A stretch of 64,000 nt of DNA from Promethearchaeota archaeon (GCA_048940645.1 JBHLOI010000007.1:28648-92647), one strand, 5' to 3'; counted from the first letter of the stretch, positions 5,434 to 64,000 are shown. Made by a program: numbers and translations. Notes: generated from the sequence alone by a model not told the origin.

Positions 5434-5483
5434 ATTTCCAGAATCATTGTTATCTAAATTTTCTTTTTCGTTTTCTTTAATTT

Positions 5484-5906
5484 TTAACTCCCTTCTTTGG
5501 ATTTTTCTTTTGTTAAAAGGATATTTAAATTATGAAAAAAGATAAGAATAGCACCTGCTATAGACATATAAAAACCAATACCTGCGCTCTGGATATAAGC
5601 TATCTCTTGAGGAATTAATTCAAAAATAAAAATCAAAAAGAAACCAAATCCCACAAAATTAATGATTACCGAATTTATTCGATATTCTAATTTAAAATAT
5701 ATTAATAAAGTAGCTATTAAACATATACTACCACTGATTAAAGGAAATAGATATAAAAATGCATTTGAAATATCCACAGATATAGCTATTAAATATCTCT
5801 CCATTAATGAGTATCCAGAAAACCACGAAAAAAACTGAGATATAATCAATAAAATTGACCCTGTTAGCCCTAACAACCTATAATCAAAATTAGATTTGAT
5901 GTTCAT
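5484..5906 (-). CDS. hypothetical integral membrane protein (4 TM)
   Basis: 140-aa ORF made almost entirely of hydrophobic segments. Same strand as, and downstream of, the gap after the HTH-membrane gene. Confidence 0.5.
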   Translation of the reverse strand: MNIKSNFDYRLLGLTGSILLIISQFFSWFSGYSLMERYLIAISVDISNAFLYLFPLISGSICLIATLLIYFKLEYRINSVIINFVGFGFFLIFIFELIPQEIAYIQSAGIGFYMSIAGAILIFFHNLNILLTKEKSKEGS

Positions 5907-6026
5907 ATACCATTCTCGATATTTGATTTTTCATACATAAACATTCAAATAGTATAAAAATAAATATTAATATTAATTTATTTCTTAATTCTCAACTCAA
6001 AATTAATTGCTGTTTTTTGAAAAATC

Positions 6027-7352
6027 ATGTCTGTTCAAGAAGAACAAGTAGATATGGATTCAGTCGCATTGTTCGATTACTTAAAACAAGAAATCCCAGT
6101 CGATGATTTGAAGAATTATGCCTCCCCAAAACGGATTCGAAGCATAGATTTCGTAAAAGGATTAGCTATAGTCATGATACTCATGGCTCACACAAGCAGT
6201 GCCTGGTTAGATAGCCAATGGATATATCTTTATGGGATGATGTACGCTCTACTTGATTTTCTCGGACCCTCCCTGTTTGTGTTTCTTTCAGCTCTTAGTG
6301 TTATCTTTAGCGTCAAAAGAAAGCAAGGCGTTGTACCAGATAAAGTTATTAGAAATGGGATTGTTACCCGAGGTATCGTCATAATGGTGATAGGGATATT
6401 GTTTAATCTTCCAACGGTTTTCCTTTTTAACAAACCAGACTGGATTTGGAACTGGAATATCTTGGTATTCATTGGTTTTTCACAGATTGTCTCACTTTAC
6501 GCTTTAAAGTTAGGTAAAGCGACAAGAGGAATTATCGGGACCTTCATTATTTTTACATCGGATGCAATAAGACAATACCTTTTTGATGGAAAAGTAGCTG
6601 GGAATACATTCCTCTCAATTATTCATTATATTGTAGTTTCACCAGCTCCAATGACGCCTTTAATTCCGTTCTTATCCATATGCTTTATTTCAACTATTTT
6701 TGGTGAATATCTCTATGCTGCAATGATTGACGGAACTAAACAAGCCTATACAGTTCTTTTTAGAATATTTCTTTTCTGGGGTATTTGTCTTATTGGTTTG
6801 GGTATGATCTATCCTTTTATTCTTGGAACCCCCTTACAAACAACTGCAACTTTATCTGCTGTAGATTATCCCTTTTTAGACTTGCTTAGATTAGCAAACT
6901 CTCAAACATTTACGAGTTTTAAATTTCCTGGAATGCCTGATTTCTTAATTAGAGGCAGATCCTCAAACATGTGCTATAATTTAGGATGGGCTTTACTTAT
7001 AATTGCAATCTTTTTTTACTATATCGATATTAAAGATAAAGATAATAGTTTTATTAGGATGCTTGTATATTATGGTAAAGTTTCTCTAAGTCTATTTCTT
7101 GTACATTGGGCATTTATTAGCCTTTTCGTAGGTTATTTTAATATCTTGTTCTTTATATTTATATGGCTTGGTTTCACTGGTTTAATGGGCTTTTTGATGT
7201 ACATTTGGATAGAGTTTGCAAATGGGGTTGGAAGTCCTGAATGGATAATGGTACAAATCAGTAGAATAGGGCAAAAAACAACACATGCAGTAAAAAAAGA
7301 AACACATCTCATTGTAGAGAAAATTAAGAAAGAACATGAGGATAAATCCTAA
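6027..7352 (+). CDS. DUF1624/HGSNAT-like membrane acyltransferase family protein
   Basis: The RIRSIDFVKGLAIVMILMAHT opening motif followed by about 10 TM segments is characteristic of the heparan-alpha-glucosaminide N-acetyltransferase-like family. Confidence 0.55.
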   Translation: MSVQEEQVDMDSVALFDYLKQEIPVDDLKNYASPKRIRSIDFVKGLAIVMILMAHTSSAWLDSQWIYLYGMMYALLDFLGPSLFVFLSALSVIFSVKRKQGVVPDKVIRNGIVTRGIVIMVIGILFNLPTVFLFNKPDWIWNWNILVFIGFSQIVSLYALKLGKATRGIIGTFIIFTSDAIRQYLFDGKVAGNTFLSIIHYIVVSPAPMTPLIPFLSICFISTIFGEYLYAAMIDGTKQAYTVLFRIFLFWGICLIGLGMIYPFILGTPLQTTATLSAVDYPFLDLLRLANSQTFTSFKFPGMPDFLIRGRSSNMCYNLGWALLIIAIFFYYIDIKDKDNSFIRMLVYYGKVSLSLFLVHWAFISLFVGYFNILFFIFIWLGFTGLMGFLMYIWIEFANGVGSPEWIMVQISRIGQKTTHAVKKETHLIVEKIKKEHEDKS

Positions 7353-46652: not shown

Positions 46653-47729
46653 ATGAATATGAATGAAGAAGAACACAAGGAAAATATGTTTCTGAGTAAA
46701 AAAGAATGGACCTTCTGTCCTTCATGTGGATTTAAACTTCCAGAAATAGATAGACAAAGATATTGTATTAAGTGTGGAGTGGACCTAGAATATATTAAAA
46801 GTAACGTTATTTCACGTCCACCATCGCCTATTGATATAAGCACATATAGATCCGAGTGGGATCAAGAAAAAATTGCAGATAAGGATATTTTAAATCTTGG
46901 AGAAAAACCATTATGGGGTAGTTTTTATTCAATAGGCATTCCTATACTTGCTTTTATTTTAATGTTTTTTTTAGGAACTATTATAATGTCATTTCTTGTT
47001 CCTTTGGTATCTAATTTAGAAGAACTTACGGCCTTGATGTTTAATCCATATTTTGTTGTTCTACTTTCGTTTACTGAATTAATTTTTATATTAGTTCCAG
47101 TTTATTATGTCGGTAAGTATCTTCAAAATCCTAAATTCAATAATCGTTTAATGTTATTAGGGTTCACCCTAAAGGGTAATGATAATTTTAAACCTGTAAA
47201 AGAAGTCTTTATTGGTTTAGCATTTGCAGTTTTAGGAATACTTTTAGTGTTTTCAGTATCATTCCTTATTGAAATTATTTTAGAATTGATTTTTGGCGTA
47301 GATATTGTGTTTACTGGAGGTGGCTCATTAAATGAAATAGATATAATTCTAGCTAATTCTGACATTTTATCTCTAATATTTCTCGCAATTACTATGATAT
47401 TAATCGTCGGTACTTCAGAAGAATTGTTATTTAGAGGATTCATGCAAAAAGGTTTAGTAAGGACTGTTGGAAAGTACGGAGGACTTATTATCACAGCACT
47501 AATCTTCTCCTCAATCCATCTAATAGGAATTTTCCAAATAGGCAATGCTAATCCAATAGATTATCTACTTTCCTTTTTACTCAACTTCTTCCCATATTTT
47601 GCATTATCCCTATTGTTGGGATTTTTATTTTATTGGAGAAAAGAAAATCTTATTGCTGTTGTTATTATGCATGGTTTTTATAATGCAATAACGATAATTA
47701 TAGCTTATATCTATTTTAACTTTATTTGA
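46653..47729 (+). CDS. CPBP-family intramembrane glutamic protease (CAAX-protease-like) with N-terminal zinc ribbon
   Basis: CPSCG...CIKCG zinc ribbon. CPBP motifs EELLFRG, FSSIHL, HGFYN in a polytopic membrane domain. Confidence 0.8.
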   Translation: MNMNEEEHKENMFLSKKEWTFCPSCGFKLPEIDRQRYCIKCGVDLEYIKSNVISRPPSPIDISTYRSEWDQEKIADKDILNLGEKPLWGSFYSIGIPILAFILMFFLGTIIMSFLVPLVSNLEELTALMFNPYFVVLLSFTELIFILVPVYYVGKYLQNPKFNNRLMLLGFTLKGNDNFKPVKEVFIGLAFAVLGILLVFSVSFLIEIILELIFGVDIVFTGGGSLNEIDIILANSDILSLIFLAITMILIVGTSEELLFRGFMQKGLVRTVGKYGGLIITALIFSSIHLIGIFQIGNANPIDYLLSFLLNFFPYFALSLLLGFLFYWRKENLIAVVIMHGFYNAITIIIAYIYFNFI

Positions 47730-50576: not shown

Positions 50577-51218
50577 ATGATGGAAAATATTGCAAATAAA
50601 TTAAATCTAGATAAAAACTCTTTAGAAAAAATCATTAAATCAAGTACCACAACGGTTGGAATAATTGTAAAGGATGGTATCGTAGTAGGAACGGAATCTC
50701 AAGCTACTGCAGGATATACTGTTGCTACAAAACAAGCTCAGAAACTTTTTAAGATAAATGATTATACATGTGCAACTATTTCTGGAGGGGTTGCAGATTG
50801 CCAGTATGTAGTTAATCAACTTAAAGCATTATCTAAATTAAAAGAAGTTGAAGAGGAAAAAGTTCCTGAACCCAAGTACATTGCTAGCGTTACAAGAAAC
50901 ATTTTATTCAGTGGTAGATCATATTACCTTGCTATGATGATAATTGGTGGTTACTCAGTAAAAGAGAGTAACGGGAAACTTTACGGAGTTGACTTATTAG
51001 GTACTCTTTATGAAGAAGAAAATTTCATTGCTTTTGGTTCTGGAGGGCCATTCTCCTTAGGTGTATTAGAGGCTGATTGGAAGCCTGGCATGACTTCAAA
51101 TTTGGGAGTTGAATTAGTCAAAACCGCTATTTCTAGTTCTCGTGAAAGAGACGCCGCATCTGGATTTAAAATTCAAATATGTACTGTTACTAAAGATGGT
51201 TATAAACAAATTCAATGA
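50577..51218 (+). CDS. psmB: proteasome beta subunit (with propeptide)
   Basis: Propeptide followed by catalytic Thr in SS/TTTVGIIVKDGIVVGTESQATAG. GSG motif (AFGSGGP). Length 213 aa. Confidence 0.9.
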   Translation: MMENIANKLNLDKNSLEKIIKSSTTTVGIIVKDGIVVGTESQATAGYTVATKQAQKLFKINDYTCATISGGVADCQYVVNQLKALSKLKEVEEEKVPEPKYIASVTRNILFSGRSYYLAMMIIGGYSVKESNGKLYGVDLLGTLYEEENFIAFGSGGPFSLGVLEADWKPGMTSNLGVELVKTAISSSRERDAASGFKIQICTVTKDGYKQIQ

Positions 51219-51231
51219 TTTTTTTAAATAA

Positions 51232-51723
51232 CTACTTCTTAAGAAAATCTATATTAATTTGTCTAAGTTCATCAAAAATATAGATAAAACCATTTAATGT
51301 TTTTTTTTGAGCATCCATTATTGTCCAGATAATATGTTTAAATTTTGTAATCTTACCCTCATAGTAACTTCTCATATATGGTATATCAACACCACTTGGA
51401 TAAGCTCCACCTGGATGAGAATGAAAGATACTTATTAATTGTAAATTGAAGTTTTTCAAAAATTTTTCAGTTATCTCTTTTAATTTTAGATAATCATCCA
51501 TTAGAAAGGCTACAGGACTTTCAGAAGAGGATTCTATACACTCAAACTTTTTAGTATAATAATTATAAGAATAATCATTTTCGAAATTGGTTTTCTTAAT
51601 TTCTTCAATTTTTCCATAAATTAGACCACATGCCTCGTTAGGATAAGCTTTATCAACACATTGTTCTATCTTTTTATAAATATCCTGATTGATGAAGAAC
51701 GTTATATCTTTCTCAAATTTCAC
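51232..51723 (-). CDS. JAMM/MPN+ metalloprotease
   Basis: Catalytic Glu context (PNEACGLIYG) and complete JAMM motif FHSHPGGAYPSGVD (HxHx7Sx2D). Confidence 0.8.
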   Translation of the reverse strand: MKFEKDITFFINQDIYKKIEQCVDKAYPNEACGLIYGKIEEIKKTNFENDYSYNYYTKKFECIESSSESPVAFLMDDYLKLKEITEKFLKNFNLQLISIFHSHPGGAYPSGVDIPYMRSYYEGKITKFKHIIWTIMDAQKKTLNGFIYIFDELRQINIDFLKK

Positions 51724-51746: not shown

Positions 51747-52442
51747 TTATAGTAATGTTAGTGCAGCATTCATAGCCGCTAACCTTGCCTTTCTTATATC
51801 AGCACCAGATCCTATAATTATAACGTCCCCTCTTTCAAAAAATACATTCACATTAACTATTTTTGTTTTGAAGTATAATTGAACTTTATCATTTATTTTT
51901 ACTCCATGATTTTCTTGTCCTGAGGAATACGAGGGAAATAATAGTTCATTTCCATTATAAATAAGGCAAGTAGCTCCTAATCCTCCTAATCTAATTGCTG
52001 CATCTCTTTGTTCAACACCACTTTTTAAATGATCAGCAGCATCTCTAACTAAACAATAATATGATTTTGAAATTTCAGAATCGATTATAAAATTTTTCAA
52101 AATAGAAACATCTCCTTCATCTAATAAAGGGATTTTATTTTTAATTTTCATTAGAATCTGTAGGCCTTTTTCAGTCAACACATGTCCTTTTGACTTTATT
52201 TGTTGTTTGTTATTACTATTCTTAACAAGGACTTCTATAAAACCACCCTCTTCTTTTAATTTTTTAACAAGAGATTTTGCTGTACCTCCTCCTAATATTA
52301 ATTCTTCTTTTAGACGATATCTTCCCAAACCTTCAGGATTATCTCCAAATAATAATATAGCTAAAATAACATGAGCATAATCGAAAGAAGGTCTAATTGT
52401 TTTGCTCTCAAAGAGAGGATCTAATTCTTCAAAATCTTTCAT
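51747..52442 (-). CDS. winged-helix protein with uncharacterised C-terminal domain (DUF4443-like, tentative)
   Basis: N-terminal wHTH-like GLGRYRLKEELILGGGTAKSLVKKLKEEGGFIEV. The C-terminal 120 aa (VRDAADHLKSGVEQRDAAIRLGGLGATCLIYNG...) has no function I can assign. Confidence 0.35.
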   Translation of the reverse strand: MKDFEELDPLFESKTIRPSFDYAHVILAILLFGDNPEGLGRYRLKEELILGGGTAKSLVKKLKEEGGFIEVLVKNSNNKQQIKSKGHVLTEKGLQILMKIKNKIPLLDEGDVSILKNFIIDSEISKSYYCLVRDAADHLKSGVEQRDAAIRLGGLGATCLIYNGNELLFPSYSSGQENHGVKINDKVQLYFKTKIVNVNVFFERGDVIIIGSGADIRKARLAAMNAALTLL

Positions 52443-54427: not shown

Positions 54428-54853
54428 TTATTCATGTTCAAGATGAAATAACATATGCCCCTCATATTGAAAGTTATTTACACTTTTTAGGAGTGTTTCT
54501 AACTTAACATTTTCCGTTGTAAGTATGACAACCACTTCAAATTTACTTAATTGGAAAACCAAAACGCCGCCTTTAGACCCTTTAATATGTAAATAATTGA
54601 ATTCTCCATTATCCATTTCATTATTTCCTCTCTTTCCTACTGCTAATATTGTAGCAGAAAGAGCAGATAACTGACTTTTATTAATACCTCTAGGTAGAGT
54701 AGATGCAATTGGTAAACCTTCGACAGAAAGCAAAATGACTCCCTTAATTGCTGAATTTGTATTTTGCAGACTAAATAAAAATTTTTCGACGTTTTCTGGA
54801 TGATATCTCAATATTAGTAGATAAGAAAAGTGAAAATAAATACATTTGTTCAT
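54428..54853 (-). CDS. Roadblock/LC7 (MglB-like) domain protein
   Basis: AIKGVILLSVEGLPIASTLPRGINKSQLSALSATILAVGKRGNNEM...GEFNYLHIKGSKGGVLVFQL...VVVILT follows the Robl_LC7 pattern. ATG at 54853 preferred over the TTG at 54868. Confidence 0.7.
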   Translation of the reverse strand: MNKCIYFHFSYLLILRYHPENVEKFLFSLQNTNSAIKGVILLSVEGLPIASTLPRGINKSQLSALSATILAVGKRGNNEMDNGEFNYLHIKGSKGGVLVFQLSKFEVVVILTTENVKLETLLKSVNNFQYEGHMLFHLEHE

Positions 54854-54878
54854 ACAATTTTCAAGCAAGAGGGCGAAA

Positions 54879-55655: not shown

Positions 55656-57239
55656 ATGAAGATTCTATATGTAAATCCTGCTCGATTGGAAGCAGGGTTG
55701 GATGCCATCATTAAGGGTTCGCCCTTAAGCCTTATTTCAATTGCTGCCATGGTTCCTGAACATGATGCTAAATTATTTGATTTTAAAGTTGATAAATATC
55801 GTGAAAAGAGATTTCGCAGTGATTTAAACCGATATGACGTAGTTGCTATTACAAGTATGACACCCCAGATATATCACGCATTAGAGGTGGCACATATGGC
55901 CAAAGAACAAGGATGTCGTACAATACTAGGCGGATATCACCCTACTCTGGCACCCGAATTCGTAGCACGGCAACCGGACGTAGATTTCACCATTAGAGGT
56001 GAGGGAGAACATACTTTTAAAGAAGTAATTGATTATCTTGATGGTAATAGAAATAATATTGAATTAAATCAAATTGATGGCTTATCGTATAAGGATAAAG
56101 ATGGAACAGTAAAACATAATAAAGAGCGTCAATTAGAATGCGATTTAGATAGCCTTCCTATGCCTCGAAGAGATTTATTAGACGATACAAAGTATATTTA
56201 CTTAGGAGCAAGAGTAGCTCAGCTTGAAACGTCACGCGGCTGCCCACACAATTGTAAATTCTGTTGCATCATTAAAATGTGGAGGAATTCAAATAAACCT
56301 GTAGTTTATAGAACAAAATCAACTAAAAGGATAATGCGAGAAATTTATGATGTTGATTGGAAAAATGATTTTATCTTTTTCTGTGAAGATAATTTTACTA
56401 TTAAAATAAAACGGACAAAAAAAATACTAGAGACAATGATTCGTTCAGGAGTCCCAAACAAAATTTATTTTTCCTGTCAATCCCGAGTTGATACATTATA
56501 TCGAAATCCTTGGTTAGTTGATTTAATGCACAAGGCAGGCATGAGACAAGTATTTTTAGGTATTGAGAGTGTGCACCAACAAAGCCTTGACGCTATGAAT
56601 AAACAAAATACTACTCCAGAAATGGTTAAAGGTGTTGTAACTATGCTCCAGGACCGAGGAATTTCAATATTCGGAGGTGTTATTATTGGATTTCCAGGTG
56701 AAACTAAAACAATGGTAAGACAAAATATTCAATTTGCTAGATCCCTTAATTTAACCTGTATTCAATTTACTCCCATTACAGCATTTCCGGGAACTGAGTT
56801 CTACAATGAAATGTCAGAAAAAAAAATGATTACAACAAAGAATTATAGATACTATGATTTATTTCATCCAATGATGCGTACAGAACAACTAACAACTAAT
56901 GAAATATATGAATTAGTAGGCGAAGCATATTCTGCATATTATCTTAGTAAGGGTTGGCTTGGAATGCTCATAAAAAGATATACTAATCCTTTTGGTAAAT
57001 TTAACTGGATGGGCCGAAATGTACCACGCTTTGCTAAAACTGTTATTAAAAGTGGAAATGATATGCTTCATTCAATGGGAATGAGTAAATCGATAATTTC
57101 TGATGAATTAAAAGAATTTATGGAAAATGGAATACCCAATACAACATTCATACCTAAAAAATCTGATAGTTTAGACAAAAAAGGCGAACATATCACATTT
57201 ATTAGAAAAGTACAAAAACCAGCAAAAATCGCCAATTAA
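55656..57239 (+). CDS. B12-binding-domain radical SAM enzyme (class B)
   Basis: N-terminal cobalamin-binding-like Rossmann region (YDVVAITSMTPQ...GGYHPT). Radical SAM cluster motif ETSRGCPHNCKFCC. GIES, GFPGET. Confidence 0.85.
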   Translation: MKILYVNPARLEAGLDAIIKGSPLSLISIAAMVPEHDAKLFDFKVDKYREKRFRSDLNRYDVVAITSMTPQIYHALEVAHMAKEQGCRTILGGYHPTLAPEFVARQPDVDFTIRGEGEHTFKEVIDYLDGNRNNIELNQIDGLSYKDKDGTVKHNKERQLECDLDSLPMPRRDLLDDTKYIYLGARVAQLETSRGCPHNCKFCCIIKMWRNSNKPVVYRTKSTKRIMREIYDVDWKNDFIFFCEDNFTIKIKRTKKILETMIRSGVPNKIYFSCQSRVDTLYRNPWLVDLMHKAGMRQVFLGIESVHQQSLDAMNKQNTTPEMVKGVVTMLQDRGISIFGGVIIGFPGETKTMVRQNIQFARSLNLTCIQFTPITAFPGTEFYNEMSEKKMITTKNYRYYDLFHPMMRTEQLTTNEIYELVGEAYSAYYLSKGWLGMLIKRYTNPFGKFNWMGRNVPRFAKTVIKSGNDMLHSMGMSKSIISDELKEFMENGIPNTTFIPKKSDSLDKKGEHITFIRKVQKPAKIAN

Positions 57240-58985: not shown

Positions 58986-61139
58986 ATGCAAACTCAAAAA
59001 CTGGAGTATTTTAACGGCCCTTTCTTAAAAATGAATAAGGTATTTTATCGACACTATCAAGAAAACATTGTTAAGAGATGTAATAATAAAAATACTCTGG
59101 TTGTTTTGCCAACTGGTTTAGGAAAGACAATTATTGGCATTTTACTTATCGCAAAATCATTAGAAAGGTATCCAAAATCAAAAATCATAATTTTAGCACC
59201 AACTAGACCATTAGTTTCACAACATAAATCATCATGCCAAAAATTCCTTGATATTGAGATTGAAAACATTACTGCATTTACAGGAAAAATTCAGCCGGAA
59301 AAAAGAATACTTCTCTTTAATAATTCAAAAGTGATAATTTCTACTCCTCAAGTGATTAAAAATGATATTGAAAGAGGTAGATATAATTTAAACCATATTT
59401 CTTTATTAATTTTTGATGAAGGACATCGAACTAAAGGCAATTATGCTTATAATTTCATTTCAAATGAATATATAAATACGTGTTCAGATCCACTAATATT
59501 AGCATTAACAGCATCTCCAGGTAAAGATTATTCATACATTCAACAATTATGCGATAACCTATTCATTGAGAATGTTGTCTTCAAATCCTATGATGATGGG
59601 GATGTACAAAAATACATCTATGATATTGATACTTTTTTAGAGTTTGTAAATGTTCCAATTAAGGTTTTGGAAATCAGTGCTATCTGGTATAACTTATTTG
59701 AGAGACATTTAAGACTATTTATTGATTGGAAATTAATTCCCCCCAATAAAAAGTATTATTCAAAAGTAGAGTTTCTAGGAATAGCTCGGGATTTAACTTT
59801 ATCATTAAGATATGAAAATGGTTATGAGCCAGATTTATCAGAGGATGATTATATCAATTTATTATATCATCAAGCCCCAAAAGTTATTGATATAATTAGA
59901 GAAGAAGAACTTAATATTCAAACCATTTATTCTTATTGTTCTAGTTGTATTAGTCTTCTTCATGGTAAAGATTTGCTAGAAACCCAAAATTACTCATTAT
60001 TTAAATCTTTCTTAGAAAGAATAAAATCAAAATCAGAAAAGGGTATATTATCAGCTAAAAGAATTATTCACTCAGAACACTATAAATTCATAGAAAGTTT
60101 GCTAGGAAATATAAAAGATGAACAGTTATCCCATCCTAAAATAGAAAAAGTGCTCTCAATAATTCAAGAGGAATCTCAAGAATACAACAATCATAAAATC
60201 TTGATTTTCACCCAATTTCGCGAAATGGCAGAACATCTAAAAAATAAAATTACAAATCAATTTAAAGCAAATTTAAAAGTAGAGAAATTTATTGGTCAAG
60301 CATCTAAATTTAATGATTTTGGATTTTCTCAAAACAGGCAATTAGATATTCTTGACAAATTTAGATCGGGAGAAGTCAATATATTAATCGCAACTAGTGT
60401 GGCAGAAGAAGGTCTTGATATTCCAAATGTAGATGCAATAATTTTCTATGAACCCGTTCCGTCTGAAATTCGTTTAATTCAAAGAAGAGGGAGAACTGGA
60501 AGAAATTCTTCAGGTAGATGTTACATTCTCCTTACTGAAGGAACAGTTGATGTGCCTTTTCATAAAGTTGCCACTCGAAAGGAAAAGACTATGAATTATA
60601 TTCTTTCAAAACCCACAACTTTAGAATTATCCAAAAATCTTGAAAGGCATAAAATTGATTTTCAAAAAAGTAAAATTTATGGTCATAGCTTAGACTTTAT
60701 TAAACAACTTAAAGAACGTAAAGAAAAAGAAAAAGAAGTTCTTGCTGATCATTCGCTTGAAGATATAATTACAGAAATTGATAATTTTGCTAACAGTAGT
60801 GAATATCAAGAATTAAAAGAATATGGAATAATAAATTTCAATGATATAATTAAGTTAGATAAAGGTAAATTAAAAAAGTCTCTACTAAAAATAAAATTGA
60901 ACAAAAGTAATCAATCTAAGAAAAGGATTCCTCATATAAATAAGAAAATAAGAACTCTCATAAATATAATAAAAATTTATGGGCAAAATGGAATACTTAA
61001 CTTTTCAACATTTCAGGATCTTGCCCGTGAAGAAGATATCTATGACGATAAATTTTATATCCATTTTAATCAAGCATGCTATTTAGGTTATATTAGTAAA
61101 CAAGCTGAAAAGGTCCAATTAATTTCGGATTGTGAATAA
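58986..61139 (+). CDS. Hef/FANCM/Mph1-family SF2 helicase without a recognisable ERCC4 nuclease domain
   Basis: YRHYQENIV, Walker A LPTGLGKT, DEGH, TASPG, inserted helical domain, FTQFR, ATSVAEEGLDIP, QRRGRTGR. The C-terminal about 160 aa lack the GDxnERKxxxD nuclease motif. Confidence 0.8.
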   Translation: MQTQKLEYFNGPFLKMNKVFYRHYQENIVKRCNNKNTLVVLPTGLGKTIIGILLIAKSLERYPKSKIIILAPTRPLVSQHKSSCQKFLDIEIENITAFTGKIQPEKRILLFNNSKVIISTPQVIKNDIERGRYNLNHISLLIFDEGHRTKGNYAYNFISNEYINTCSDPLILALTASPGKDYSYIQQLCDNLFIENVVFKSYDDGDVQKYIYDIDTFLEFVNVPIKVLEISAIWYNLFERHLRLFIDWKLIPPNKKYYSKVEFLGIARDLTLSLRYENGYEPDLSEDDYINLLYHQAPKVIDIIREEELNIQTIYSYCSSCISLLHGKDLLETQNYSLFKSFLERIKSKSEKGILSAKRIIHSEHYKFIESLLGNIKDEQLSHPKIEKVLSIIQEESQEYNNHKILIFTQFREMAEHLKNKITNQFKANLKVEKFIGQASKFNDFGFSQNRQLDILDKFRSGEVNILIATSVAEEGLDIPNVDAIIFYEPVPSEIRLIQRRGRTGRNSSGRCYILLTEGTVDVPFHKVATRKEKTMNYILSKPTTLELSKNLERHKIDFQKSKIYGHSLDFIKQLKERKEKEKEVLADHSLEDIITEIDNFANSSEYQELKEYGIINFNDIIKLDKGKLKKSLLKIKLNKSNQSKKRIPHINKKIRTLINIIKIYGQNGILNFSTFQDLAREEDIYDDKFYIHFNQACYLGYISKQAEKVQLISDCE

Positions 61140-61154
61140 GATATAATTTGAAAA

Positions 61155-64000
61155 TCAGATTTTGTCTTGCTTCTTTCGCTTAATTAATAGATATAAAGCA
61201 AGTATTATTATTAAAACGAATAATAGTATAAATATAGCTGGTCCAGTAAAATTGAATAATGAGAGCGTAATAGATAATATTGCTGCTAGGAATGCAAATA
61301 TACTATAATTTTGGCTTGCAAAACTCCTTAGGCGCCTCCAGAACATATAAAATCTAAAATTCATCTTCTTCATAACCTCTAGTTCAGATTCATCTACTTT
61401 ATTTAATAAATCTGGATTTTCATAATACAATCCAATACGAGGATCGTATTTTCCTTTTAATTTCCCTGAACTAATTAAAGAAATTAAATGTTCTTGAATT
61501 TTTTGTTTCTTTATATTTAATTCGTTCTGTAAAAAGCTTATTGTCAAATATTGGTCTGCCACAGCTTTAATCGCCATTGAAACATATGATTTGATTATCA
61601 TCTCATCAAGAGATTTAACTTTCTCATACATTAAATCACGAAAACCTTTAATAAATAACTCAAAATCATCTAGTAAATACTTATTCTTGGTTTCGAAATT
61701 ATTTGACTTTCTTTCATATTCTCTAACTAAGTTTTTTATGTTTTTTGAAACCTCTCTAATTTCTGCCTGGATTTTCTTTTCTCTTTTTTGTACTTTTGCA
61801 TGAGCTCTTTTAAACTCTTTATATTCTATGTAGTCTTCAACTCTTGTCTGAAATGTTCCTAATAATTGACTTAAACGTATTTTTATTTTATTTATTTTGT
61901 CTAACAATTCATTTCGGTAGGTATCATCCTTTAATATACTAATATCTTCAGTAATTTTATCCAATTTAGCCTTGTAAAAAGCTCCAAATTCATTCTTTCT
62001 TGAGACATAAAATTCCCTTATTTCAGTTTCTAGCCGCTTGAAACTAGAATTTTTAGTTAGTGACCCTTTTAGTTTTTCATTAATCTTTTCCTCAATCCTT
62101 TTTACCTTAACATCAAATTTTGTTTTCTTAGATTCAAAATGTTCAATAGCTTTTACATAAGAACCAAAATTTTCAATATTTTCAAAAACTTTGATAAGAT
62201 TATTTACAAAATCTAATGTTAATACATTATATTCTTCTGAAATAAAAATCTGAAACTCATTAAAGAAATTTAAATTGGCTTTTATTTTTTGAATTGCCAT
62301 CTTTCCATTTGTTAATATATTTTCTAATTCTTTTTTAGTGTTAAGATTTTCTTCTCTCTCTTCAGTAATTTTAAGTTGGTTAACTTTATCTTCATATTGA
62401 ATTCTAATTTTTTTCTCTAAATCTGAATATTCTGTGATTCTATTCTGTAGTTCTAGTATATTGACTGCTAATTTTTTATTCCTAACTCCGGAATCATATA
62501 GTGCTAAAATCTTTCCAATTTTTTCTTGATGAAATTTTAAAAGTTTAGTATCAATATAGGTGTTTAATTCCTTGTTTTTGTAATAAGCATCATTATGAAC
62601 AACCATTAATTTCTTTTCTTCATTTAAATCACCCTCGATTTTAGAAAATTCTATCATTTCTTTAATGAGAGGTATTACTGCTTTACATTTTAAATTTAAT
62701 TTATTTGCAAGCTCTCTTATATCTACTTTATTTGTTTTTTTTTCTTTGGTCCATATCTCTATTTCACTAATGATAATTTGATTAACATAATTATCTTTTG
62801 AATTATTAATCTCAGTTGTAAGATAGTCATGAAATTTTTCCCATTGGATGATTGAAATAGAATTTTTATCAAAACTTTGTATTAATGTTTTTAAATCATT
62901 TAATTTTTTTAAAAAGATTTTATTCTTATCATCTAATTCTATGATTATTCTGTCAAAACCATCGATTACATCCTTGATTTTTATGCTTTTTGCTTCACCT
63001 AGTTTAGTTTTGTAAAATTTTAATCTAATCTTGAATCTTTGAATTTGTTCGGATATAAAATTATCAAAATCTTCAATTTTAGCTCTATTTCTCTCTTCCA
63101 ATACATCATCCTTCAGCGATTGAACTTGTTCTGCTACCAAGTTTATAATTGATTCTTCTATTACATCCAAATTTTCTTTTAAATATTGAAATAGAAGGAA
63201 CAGTTTTTGATTAGTTTTTGTTTGATCTGAGACGATTATTCTAAGCTCCTTTATTTCCTTTATTTTTTGACTTAATAAACTTTCAGAATCCTTTTTAATA
63301 ATCTCAAAAGCTTCTTTGAATTGATTTTGAGAAATTTTTTCATCCGCTTTTTGCTTTATATAAGATATTTCTTTTTTAATTTCATCATCAATCCCATCAA
63401 TTTTTTCGCTTGTTTGTTCGAAAAATTTAAATCCTTCAGCATAATAACTAAAAATTGACCCGAATTCTTCTTTTAAGTTAACCCAATTATCAATAATCTC
63501 CTTATGTTTTTTAAAAACTTTCTCTTCTTTTATCGTAATTTGTTGTGATATTTTATAAATCGTATGATCATACTTATCCACATAATTTGAGATTTTATTA
63601 AATTCCCCAATTATTAAATTGTAATTCTCGTTATTAAATCCAGATTCAAGCTTCTCTCTAAAATATTTTCTAAATGAATCTAATTCTTTTTTAATAAATT
63701 CCCCAACTTCAAAAATTCTATTTTCTAATTCATCTAAAATAGTATTAAATTTTTTTAATTCTTCTTTTTCGGAAATTTTTTCTTTTAAATATTTCTCAAC
63801 TTCATTTAGCTTCTTCTGCATTATAGAGTATGCTATTTTCCATTGATTAATTTCAGTTGCTAATACTGCTTGAATATTGATATATATCATATCTTGACTA
63901 AATGAATTTTCAATATTTTCATTTAGAAAATCAGCTTCCAATAATGCATTTTTCAAGATAAATCTCAATCGTTCTTTTGCATAGTCTATTTCGTCTAGAA
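61155..64000 (-). CDS. giant coiled-coil protein with two PCI-like winged-helix modules and C-terminal membrane anchor (5' end beyond the window)
   Basis: The frame stays open upstream of the TTG used by the track (in-frame LDEIDYAKER up to base 64000), so the N-terminus lies outside the window. More than 800 aa of heptad-rich Lys/Glu sequence. WH-like VDIRELANKLNLKCKAVIPLIKEMIEFSKIEGDL and ISFLQNELNIKKQKIQEHLISLISSGKLKGKYDPRIGLYY. Terminal TMs (IFAFLAAILSITLSLF, AIFILLFVLIIILALYLLI). Confidence 0.5.
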   Translation of the reverse strand, partial: LDEIDYAKERLRFILKNALLEADFLNENIENSFSQDMIYINIQAVLATEINQWKIAYSIMQKKLNEVEKYLKEKISEKEELKKFNTILDELENRIFEVGEFIKKELDSFRKYFREKLESGFNNENYNLIIGEFNKISNYVDKYDHTIYKISQQITIKEEKVFKKHKEIIDNWVNLKEEFGSIFSYYAEGFKFFEQTSEKIDGIDDEIKKEISYIKQKADEKISQNQFKEAFEIIKKDSESLLSQKIKEIKELRIIVSDQTKTNQKLFLLFQYLKENLDVIEESIINLVAEQVQSLKDDVLEERNRAKIEDFDNFISEQIQRFKIRLKFYKTKLGEAKSIKIKDVIDGFDRIIIELDDKNKIFLKKLNDLKTLIQSFDKNSISIIQWEKFHDYLTTEINNSKDNYVNQIIISEIEIWTKEKKTNKVDIRELANKLNLKCKAVIPLIKEMIEFSKIEGDLNEEKKLMVVHNDAYYKNKELNTYIDTKLLKFHQEKIGKILALYDSGVRNKKLAVNILELQNRITEYSDLEKKIRIQYEDKVNQLKITEEREENLNTKKELENILTNGKMAIQKIKANLNFFNEFQIFISEEYNVLTLDFVNNLIKVFENIENFGSYVKAIEHFESKKTKFDVKVKRIEEKINEKLKGSLTKNSSFKRLETEIREFYVSRKNEFGAFYKAKLDKITEDISILKDDTYRNELLDKINKIKIRLSQLLGTFQTRVEDYIEYKEFKRAHAKVQKREKKIQAEIREVSKNIKNLVREYERKSNNFETKNKYLLDDFELFIKGFRDLMYEKVKSLDEMIIKSYVSMAIKAVADQYLTISFLQNELNIKKQKIQEHLISLISSGKLKGKYDPRIGLYYENPDLLNKVDESELEVMKKMNFRFYMFWRRLRSFASQNYSIFAFLAAILSITLSLFNFTGPAIFILLFVLIIILALYLLIKRKKQDKI

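Follow-up and report, generated by a model that had tools for sequence, protein, structure and literature searches.

At the end of the 64,000-nucleotide stretch of Promethearchaeota archaeon DNA analyzed here (GCA_048940645.1, JBHLOI010000007.1:28648-92647; hereafter the window), the minus strand encodes the C-terminal part of a long helical protein (61155..64000 (-)). The frame runs from 63998 to a stop codon at 61155-61157, comprises 947 codons and is open through the window edge. Among 5.8 billion proteins, a word-indexed search returned P0001, a hypothetical protein of 'Promethearchaeota archaeon' with 1,468 residues, which is 100% identical over all 947 visible residues. Hence, residues 1-521 fall beyond the window edge, and the original prediction, which rightly counted more than 940 visible residues and placed the N-terminus outside, rested on two thirds of the protein. 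Residue numbers below refer to the visible part unless the full-length protein is named. The visible part is rich in lysine (14%), isoleucine (12%), glutamate (11%), leucine (10%) and asparagine (7%); the window is AT-rich (GC content 0.24-0.36), and no tRNA or Rfam features were found in it. AlphaFold2, run with a 99-sequence alignment, models the visible part as ~85% helix (mean predicted local distance difference test, pLDDT, 81.9; predicted template modeling score, pTM, 0.37). The domain order directly predicted for the full-length protein is a toroid, two winged helices, a rod, winged helix 1, a second rod, winged helix 2, an amphipathic segment and a hydrophobic hairpin.

Two modules in the visible part share a strand-helix-helix-strand-strand core, each located behind a long helix and modeled with pLDDT ~77-89. 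According to DSSP assignment of the AlphaFold2 model (E, strand; H, helix), the core of winged helix 1 (VDIRELANKLNLKCKAVIPLIKEMIEFSKIEGDLNEEKKLMVV; residues 421-468, 62595..62738 (-)) consists of E424-426, H427-433, H438-450, E456-459 and E464-467, and that of winged helix 2 (ISFLQNELNIKKQKIQEHLISLISSGKLKGKYDPRIGLYY; residues 814-860, 61419..61559 (-)) of E817-819, H820-827, H831-843, E850-852 and E857-859. Pfam PCI (PF01399) matches the whole visible protein at residues 788-852 (E 1.4e-5, 25.6 bits; gathering cut-off 22), and winged helix 2 scanned alone is matched equally by this model (E 1.3e-5, 25.8 bits). Winged helix 1 scanned alone falls slightly under the PCI cut-off (E 8.6e-4, 19.9-20.9 bits) and further below that of Pfam DDRGK (E 0.01, 16 bits; cut-off 27.8). 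When 28 diverse family members are considered, PCI is found at E<=0.01 for winged helix 2 in 24 (best 7.4e-7) and for winged helix 1 in 10 (best 2.5e-6), and DDRGK is found at the same threshold for winged helix 1 in two (best 4e-6). Profiles of the two modules, each including the preceding helix, align over 93 columns with an hhalign probability of 95.9% (E 5.6e-9), which shows that winged helices 1 and 2 are duplicates homologous to each other.

Profile comparisons with PDB sequences connect both modules to known assembly domains. The winged helix 2 profile retrieves CSN2 (E 0.032), Rpn6/PSMD11 (0.06) and eIF3e (0.3), and the alignment spans the classical PCI signature 'isFlnneLkikkqniqdrllaLissgeLkgkyd'. 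The winged helix 1 profile matches the DDRGK1-UFL1 fusion 8b9x (E 1.6e-5), where it covers the DDRGK1 part as well as a winged helix of UFL1, and DDRGK1 by itself (5e-3), followed by Rpn6, eIF3e and cullin WH-B at ~0.1-0.2. DDRGK1 is also the best PDB relative of the second N-terminal winged helix, which lies outside the window (fusion chain 1e-3, DDRGK1 alone 0.024); similarity between winged helix 1 and the N-terminal winged helix was not significant. Foldseek with the visible model gave no match at E<=1e-3. Of the 50 listed matches, 49 are structures of the proteasome lid, the COP9 signalosome (CSN) and eIF3, with a designed protein at rank 49, and the matches to these PCI complexes are weak (E 7e-3 to 0.1, over 220-680 columns). 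The helices before the winged helices are 30-70 residues long, unlike the short hairpins of the tetratricopeptide repeat (TPR)-like PCI subdomain. The modules are best described as PCI/DDRGK-type winged helices, a type that mainly serves protein-protein assembly. The two PCI-type winged helices of the original prediction are thus borne out by the PCI matches, the modeled cores and the hhalign homology. In archaea, PCI-like domains have been described in ESCRT-linked kinases and in Asgard Vps28-containing proteins, without the present architecture (Makarova et al., 2024; PMC10936438).

The winged helices interrupt a segmented helical rod. Residues 1-46 (63861..63998 (-)) comprise a conserved helix (LDEIDYAKERL...ADFLNENIEN; majority fraction 0.86 in residues 1-30) and a low-confidence loop, and prolong a helical bundle that begins outside the window (full-length H481-521, H525-554 and H568-639). 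Rod segment I (residues 47-420, 62739..63860 (-); pLDDT ~75-91) has seven helices of 72, 30, 65, 36, 72, 32 and 40 residues by DSSP, which are connected by loops of 1-8 residues and mostly show a period of 3.5-3.75. Rod segment II (residues 470-812, 61563..62591 (-); pLDDT ~84-93) has seven main helices of 37, 32, 57, 36, 64, 36 and 40 residues. Together, the rods contain 14 helices of 30-72 residues with short loops and pLDDT mostly 80-93. The heptad signal exceeds that of shuffled sequences, with 34% of 28-residue windows above the 95th percentile and 15% above the 99th, and the register switches 46 times over 766 residues, the longest constant run being 49 windows. The heptad pattern is real yet fragmented. 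Of the almost uninterrupted coiled coil originally proposed, the length, the nearly all-helical character and the heptads hold, whereas the continuity is lost to 14 separate helices and 46 register breaks.

The alternation of long (~65-72 residues) and short (~30-36 residues) helices would be typical of consecutive three-helix bundles, because the helix that closes one bundle would continue and open the following one. From the model we infer ~114 residues per bundle, with four bundles before winged helix 1 (including H481-521 and H525-554) and three between the winged helices. A spectrin repeat comprises 106 residues. Duplication of the whole half-protein (rod and winged helix twice) was considered and rejected, as rod segments I and II align weakly with each other (hhalign E 8.6e-4, probability 23%); duplication is solid solely for the winged-helix modules together with the helix that flanks each of them.

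The protein belongs to a well-delimited family. The word-indexed search found 211 further relatives, and full-length proteins among the 120 relatives listed have 1,445-1,504 residues and 44-90% identity over the visible part. When a profile of the visible part was compared by HMMER, without a word index, with 1.84 billion representative proteins, only 85 representatives scored E<=1e-3; the full-length matches are all collinear and 1,417-1,499 residues long, and no other family appears. The homolog search called for by the original prediction therefore yields a single collinear family. In the family alignment, no position has more than 20% gaps over 947 residues and mean column identity is 61%. 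Because the alignment is almost gap-free at this identity, a precisely packed structure is favored over a generic coiled-coil spacer. The members that diverge most (E 1e-5 to 1e-16) carry the annotation Helarchaeota and retain the toroid with its HC...C motif, both winged helices, the hairpin and the basic tail.

One genome per GTDB species was scanned with 'DFLNENIE', a stretch conserved well enough to act as the search pattern of the family; relatives were found in 121 genomes, and the best 80 of the 121 loci were kept. The 80 loci lie on different contigs of differently named metagenome-assembled genomes (MAGs), which is consistent with one copy per genome. Nearly all relatives are labeled Promethearchaeota or Promethearchaeia, and the family is confined to Lokiarchaeia-type Asgard archaea including Helarchaeota. 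A few labels are implausible, namely Odin-, Thor-, Hod- and Hermod-archaeota MAGs and one 'Nanopelagicaceae bacterium' (L008, L006, L016, L049, L069, L075). Proteins from the 'Odinarchaeota' (L008) and 'Hodarchaeota' (L006) MAGs are 85-88% identical to the Loki-type protein studied here, and the copy in the 'Nanopelagicaceae bacterium' MAG (L016) is 49% identical. These mismatches probably reflect mislabelling or mis-binning. Literature searches on Asgard archaea that covered 'PCI domain', golgin, spectrin and prenyltransferase yielded no account of the family, in agreement with the original statement that no characterized archaeal equivalent is known. The fold class of every module is known; neither the combination nor the family as such appears to have been described in the searchable literature.

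The N-terminal head lies outside the window. In Pfam, Prenyltrans (alpha-alpha toroid, PF00432) scores 33.8-40 bits in the four relatives examined, compared with 19.6 bits here (cut-off 26.5), and family members are named 'hypothetical' or 'prenyltransferase/squalene oxidase repeat-containing protein' in databases. A model of full-length residues 1-642 (pLDDT 87.5, pTM 0.77) shows a toroid at residues 40-296 and winged-helix-like units at 343-375 and 407-475, followed by long helices that lead into the window. Foldseek against the PDB ranks the beta subunit of RabGGTase/GGTase-3 first (E 5.3e-5, probability 1.0, TM-score 0.54), followed by FTase, GGTase-I beta and then complement/A2M thioester domains (TED). 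Moreover, a profile of the N-terminal 340 residues that included three Helarchaeota sequences matches PDB sequences of RabGGTase beta (E 1.1e-8) and GGTase-I beta (~4e-3). G104, A123, H164, C170, G248 and F263 are invariant across Loki and Hel members, C93, D116 and C165 are nearly so, and an H-C-x4-C-x2-C motif is conserved inside the toroid. A profile search with the N-terminal toroid returned only fragments of the same family and no outside relatives. No PPTA-repeat match was found within the protein, and no alpha-subunit candidate among the conserved neighboring genes. Prenyltransferases are listed as absent from Lokiarchaeum (PMC4917890), and archaea are described as having only generic beta-subunit-like folds, with Loki small GTPases reported to lack the C-terminal Cys (CaaX; PMC4915359). 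As a separate observation, a stand-alone alpha/alpha-toroid protein of 268 residues is encoded ~1.8 kb upstream of the gene start, outside the window (L001 7357-8163 (-)). It matches SQHop_cyclase_C (E 2.5e-8) and A2M TED (E 2.6e-4), adjoins a Peptidase_C13 gene and occurs in two of the 80 related loci.

At the opposite end, winged helix 2 is followed by a juxtamembrane segment (ENPDLL..ELEVMKKMNFRFYMFWRRLRSFASQ; residues 861-896, 61311..61418 (-); majority fraction 0.73-0.75), which is modeled at low pLDDT as short amphipathic basic helices (H870-878, H881-896). Hydropathy and charge of the region beyond were analyzed by alignment column in 99 members, in which the juxtamembrane segment has a median net charge of +3 (minimum +2). 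Hydrophobic helix 1 (NYSIFAFLAAILSITLSLFN; residues 897-916, 61251..61310 (-); H898-918) has a median hydropathy of 1.66 over 20 residues, and hydrophobic helix 2 (AIFILLFVLIIILALYLLI; residues 921-939, 61182..61238 (-); H921-944) of 2.01. They are separated by an uncharged turn (residues 917-920, 61239..61250 (-); family consensus FSGGNP, 5-7 residues) with net charge 0, a length of no more than 7 residues and nearly invariant G919 and P920. Lysine or arginine immediately follows helix 2 throughout the family, and in this protein the sequence ends in the basic tail KRKKQDKI (residues 940-947, 61158..61181 (-)). Both hydrophobic helices are kept in 99/99 aligned members. Kyte-Doolittle windows of 19 residues exceed 1.6 solely in these two helices, and no signal peptide or N-terminal hydrophobic leader was found, the N-terminus being MSKVEKKTAYPY and the start of the protein, MSKVEKKTAYPYITEFK, being free of any hydrophobic segment.

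The hydropathy and charge pattern points to a C-terminal anchor in the form of a two-helix hairpin with both ends probably in the cytoplasm, because positive charge flanks the hairpin on both sides and the turn is minimal and uncharged. The 1,400-residue body would therefore be located in the cytoplasm as well, which rules out an S-layer-type surface protein. The original prediction of a tail anchor is right about the hydrophobic helices and the basic tail; the topology differs, however, as the classical tail-anchored class has one transmembrane helix and two adjacent hydrophobic helices are found here.

We tentatively favor the interpretation that this single-copy, ~1,470-residue, Lokiarchaeia-specific protein serves as a scaffold or adaptor in the cytoplasm, anchored to the membrane. 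The hairpin would anchor the protein, and the rods might form a chain of ~7 antiparallel three-helix bundles with spectrin-like connectivity. Such a strut would be semi-rigid and extend for a few tens of nanometers, in contrast to a parallel coiled coil of 100 nm. The pair of duplicated winged helices of the PCI/DDRGK type could provide sites for protein-protein assembly, either self-association or recruitment of partners, by analogy with the PCI subunits of CSN, eIF3 and the proteasome lid and with the pairing of DDRGK1 and UFL1. The distal toroid may bind a hydrophobic (isoprenoid-like) or peptide ligand and would keep this ligand, or its carrier, at a set distance from the membrane.

Several points weigh against a scaffold of this kind. 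The function is inferred, not demonstrated, and oligomerization via the winged helices would be an argument from analogy. Foldseek TM-scores to PCI proteins do not exceed 0.27, and owing to these poor scores only the winged helix and its adjacent helices are comparable to PCI proteins. Pfam Spectrin (PF00435) gives no match at E<=1, and the conserved neighborhood supplies no functional partner. In the toroid, the canonical Asp-x-Cys...His zinc triad is not recognizably kept: the repeat motif 'PDVCYSWW' has 'PDI[W/Y/C]STY' as its aligned counterpart, so that D116 is retained and the Cys position is W, Y or C. The zinc ligands of RabGGTase beta are D238, C240 and H290. Because these ligands are not recognizably conserved, the kinship of the head with prenyltransferase beta subunits is supported for the fold, but catalytic equivalence is not.

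The state of the zinc ligands also bears on the alternative that the protein is a membrane-tethered enzyme, in which an active prenyl-transferring or isoprenoid-processing toroid with a His/Cys (and Asp116) metal site is positioned or regulated by the rod and the winged helices. In favor of an enzyme, the toroid resembles the beta subunits of protein prenyltransferases more closely than terpene cyclases or TED domains, two of its residues (H164 and C170) are invariant with C165, D116 and C93 nearly so, and archaeal membranes are isoprenoid-based. We nevertheless regard an enzyme as unlikely, since the D-x-C...H ligands are not conserved in register, neither an alpha-subunit-like region nor a conserved neighboring gene for one is present, and many PF00432-type toroids are non-catalytic. 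Furthermore, Loki small GTPases are reported to have no C-terminal Cys (CaaX; PMC4915359). A more far-reaching proposal, which we consider distinctly improbable, is a Lokiarchaeia-wide membrane platform whose single chain joins a RabGGTase-beta-like prenyl-binding or -transferring head to several PCI/DDRGK-type winged helices. It would assemble, via winged-helix contacts of the PCI style, as a higher-order submembrane lattice and would be an archaeal counterpart or even precursor of the eukaryotic protein-lipidation machinery or of the membrane-anchored DDRGK1/UFL1-type scaffold, which modifies proteins at the membrane. Similarly doubtful is a nucleic-acid tether, whose winged helices would bind DNA or RNA and thereby fix the chromosome, ribosomes or mRNA to the membrane. 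The four winged helices, the Foldseek matches of the N-terminal model to winged helices of PadR, VanR, Orc1/Cdc6, TFIIE and MukE/F (E 0.08-1), the conserved synteny with a Hef-like helicase and the action of DDRGK1/UFL1-type winged helices on ribosomes bound to the endoplasmic reticulum (ER) are in line with this idea. However, the transcription-factor matches are not significant, the best family matches are of the PCI/DDRGK type that mainly mediates protein-protein contacts, and the helicase gene is convergent, making co-transcription impossible.

The golgin-like tether put forward in the original prediction, a parallel dimeric coiled coil on a C-terminal anchor that captures vesicles or other membranes with a reach of ~100 nm, is very unlikely. 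It would agree with the C-terminal membrane anchor, with ~85% helix and heptad windows enriched over shuffles, and with the Lys/Glu-rich composition, but short conserved loops break the helices every 30-72 residues with 46 register changes, the length is rigid without indels, the chain carries four winged helices and a globular head resembling an enzyme, and the anchor is a two-helix hairpin instead of a single tail anchor. Pfam contains no matching golgin, GRIP or Rab-binding model, and neither SMC nor spectrin models match. Homology to golgins is likewise missing from the HMMER search, which returns the family itself only, and from Pfam and NCBIfam. To our knowledge, golgins are not conserved with rigid length and near-absent indels, and we know of no internal vesicle system reported in cultured Lokiarchaeia. 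An SMC-like or S-layer-associated family was also considered and discarded, since neither Pfam nor NCBIfam gave such a match and the protein has neither an ATPase head nor a signal peptide. For an extracellular or S-layer-associated protein on a C-terminal anchor, one could cite that archaeal surface proteins typically end in a transmembrane segment and a basic tail, and that the upstream Peptidase_C13 and 217-residue proteins described below are secreted or membrane proteins. This explanation is largely refuted by the lack of a signal peptide or N-terminal hydrophobic segment, by the positive charges flanking both hydrophobic helices, which put the body in the cytoplasm, by the cytoplasmic nature of PCI-type winged helices and prenyltransferase-beta-like toroids, and by the predicted models, which contain no beta-rich or Ig-like domains.

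Comparison with known systems illustrates which features of the putative scaffold are shared and which are not. PCI subunits of the 26S proteasome lid, the COP9 signalosome and eIF3 have, like this protein, the PCI winged-helix signature and fold preceded by helices. They are, however, soluble proteins of ~400 residues with one PCI module behind a TPR-like solenoid of short helices, whereas at least two winged helices are found here in a 1,468-residue chain with helices of 30-72 residues, a membrane anchor and a toroid head. DDRGK1/UFBP1, which together with UFL1 forms the ER-membrane-anchored UFM1 ligase scaffold, likewise has a membrane anchor and a long helix and assembles through a PCI-like winged helix, and UFL1 is a chain of winged helices. 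With 314 residues and a single N-terminal transmembrane anchor, DDRGK1 has neither a toroid nor a multi-bundle rod; the protein studied here has a C-terminal hairpin anchor and 1,468 residues, and its DDRGK score is sub-threshold. The head shares the alpha/alpha toroid fold and the repeat motifs with prenyltransferase beta subunits (RabGGTase/GGTase-3, GGTase-I and FTase; PF00432), but it has H-C-x4-C-x2-C instead of in-register zinc ligands, is without an alpha subunit and is fused to a scaffold of more than 1,100 residues with a membrane anchor.

Spectrin-repeat rods of the eukaryotic nesprins/KASH proteins and of bacterial EzrA also sit on a membrane anchor, and their 106 residues per repeat compare with the ~114 estimated per bundle here; in contrast to them, this protein has no Pfam Spectrin match and its packing is deduced from the model. 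EzrA is anchored N-terminally and nesprins by a single C-terminal transmembrane segment with a KASH peptide; PCI winged helices and a toroid head are absent from both. Golgins resemble the protein as long helical cytoplasmic proteins with an anchor at the extreme C-terminus, but this protein differs from them in its interrupted helices, globular head, hairpin anchor and strictly conserved length, and is not homologous to them.

Of the archaea known, Lokiarchaeia count among the nearest relatives of eukaryotes, and how their membranes and cytoskeleton are organized is an open question. The protein is rigidly conserved and made from modules typical of eukaryotes, namely PCI/DDRGK-type winged helices, a prenyltransferase-beta-like toroid and probably spectrin-like bundles. 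As a defined, conserved membrane-anchored protein, it offers a concrete target for study in cultured Lokiarchaeia. Should it prove to be merely a lineage-specific structural strut, the architecture would still be new, but of limited general importance.

The gene neighborhood is conserved as well. A Hef-like DEAD/Helicase_C helicase of 717 residues (58986..61139 (+)), identified with Pfam and with NCBIfam Hef NF010337 (541.8 bits; cut-off 610), has its end 15 bases away from that of the gene studied here. Its best-matched stretch corresponds to positions 3-268 of the 781-position NF010337 model. The helicase is present in convergent orientation in 60 of the 62 related loci with enough flank, and because of this orientation it is not co-transcribable with the gene studied here. 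On the strand of the latter gene, the upstream region encodes a Peptidase_C13 protein in 37/59 loci and a 217-residue protein in 34/68. The former has 500 residues, is legumain/GPI8-like and carries an N-terminal transmembrane segment and many N-glycosylation sequons; the latter has transmembrane segments at both the N- and the C-terminus and likewise many sequons. Both are therefore regarded as extracellular or membrane proteins. Conserved upstream genes with sequon-rich products are located at 8347-9858 in L001 and at 5455-6963 and 7146-7799 in L002. The neighborhood was also considered as a clue to function and set aside: a convergent helicase and extracellular or membrane proteins upstream suggest inherited synteny, not an operon of shared function.

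Further genes in the window were also noted. A cluster ~9-10 kb from the PCI-containing gene consists of a proteasome subunit (50577-51218 (+)), a Prok-JAB/MPN protein (51232-51723 (-); ~9.4 kb from that gene) and a DUF4443 protein (51747-52442 (-)). DUF4443 and Prok-JAB genes are also found ~7-8 kb downstream of a 48%-identical ortholog (L002 19655-20410). Eukaryotic PCI proteins operate with MPN/JAB subunits. The window that contains the prenyltransferase-beta-like protein also encodes an Rce1-like protein of 358 residues (type II CAAX prenyl endopeptidase/CPBP intramembrane protease; 46653-47729 (+); Pfam E 4e-16), which NCBIfam places weakly near CPBP and myxosortase; CPBP proteases are common across prokaryotes. 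A Roadblock/LC7-domain protein of 146 residues (54428-54868 (-); E 9e-12) represents a family often discussed in connection with Asgard small-GTPase regulation. Finally, a B12-binding radical SAM protein of 527 residues (55656-57239 (+)) is encoded between the Roadblock gene and a gene for a major facilitator superfamily (MFS) transporter.

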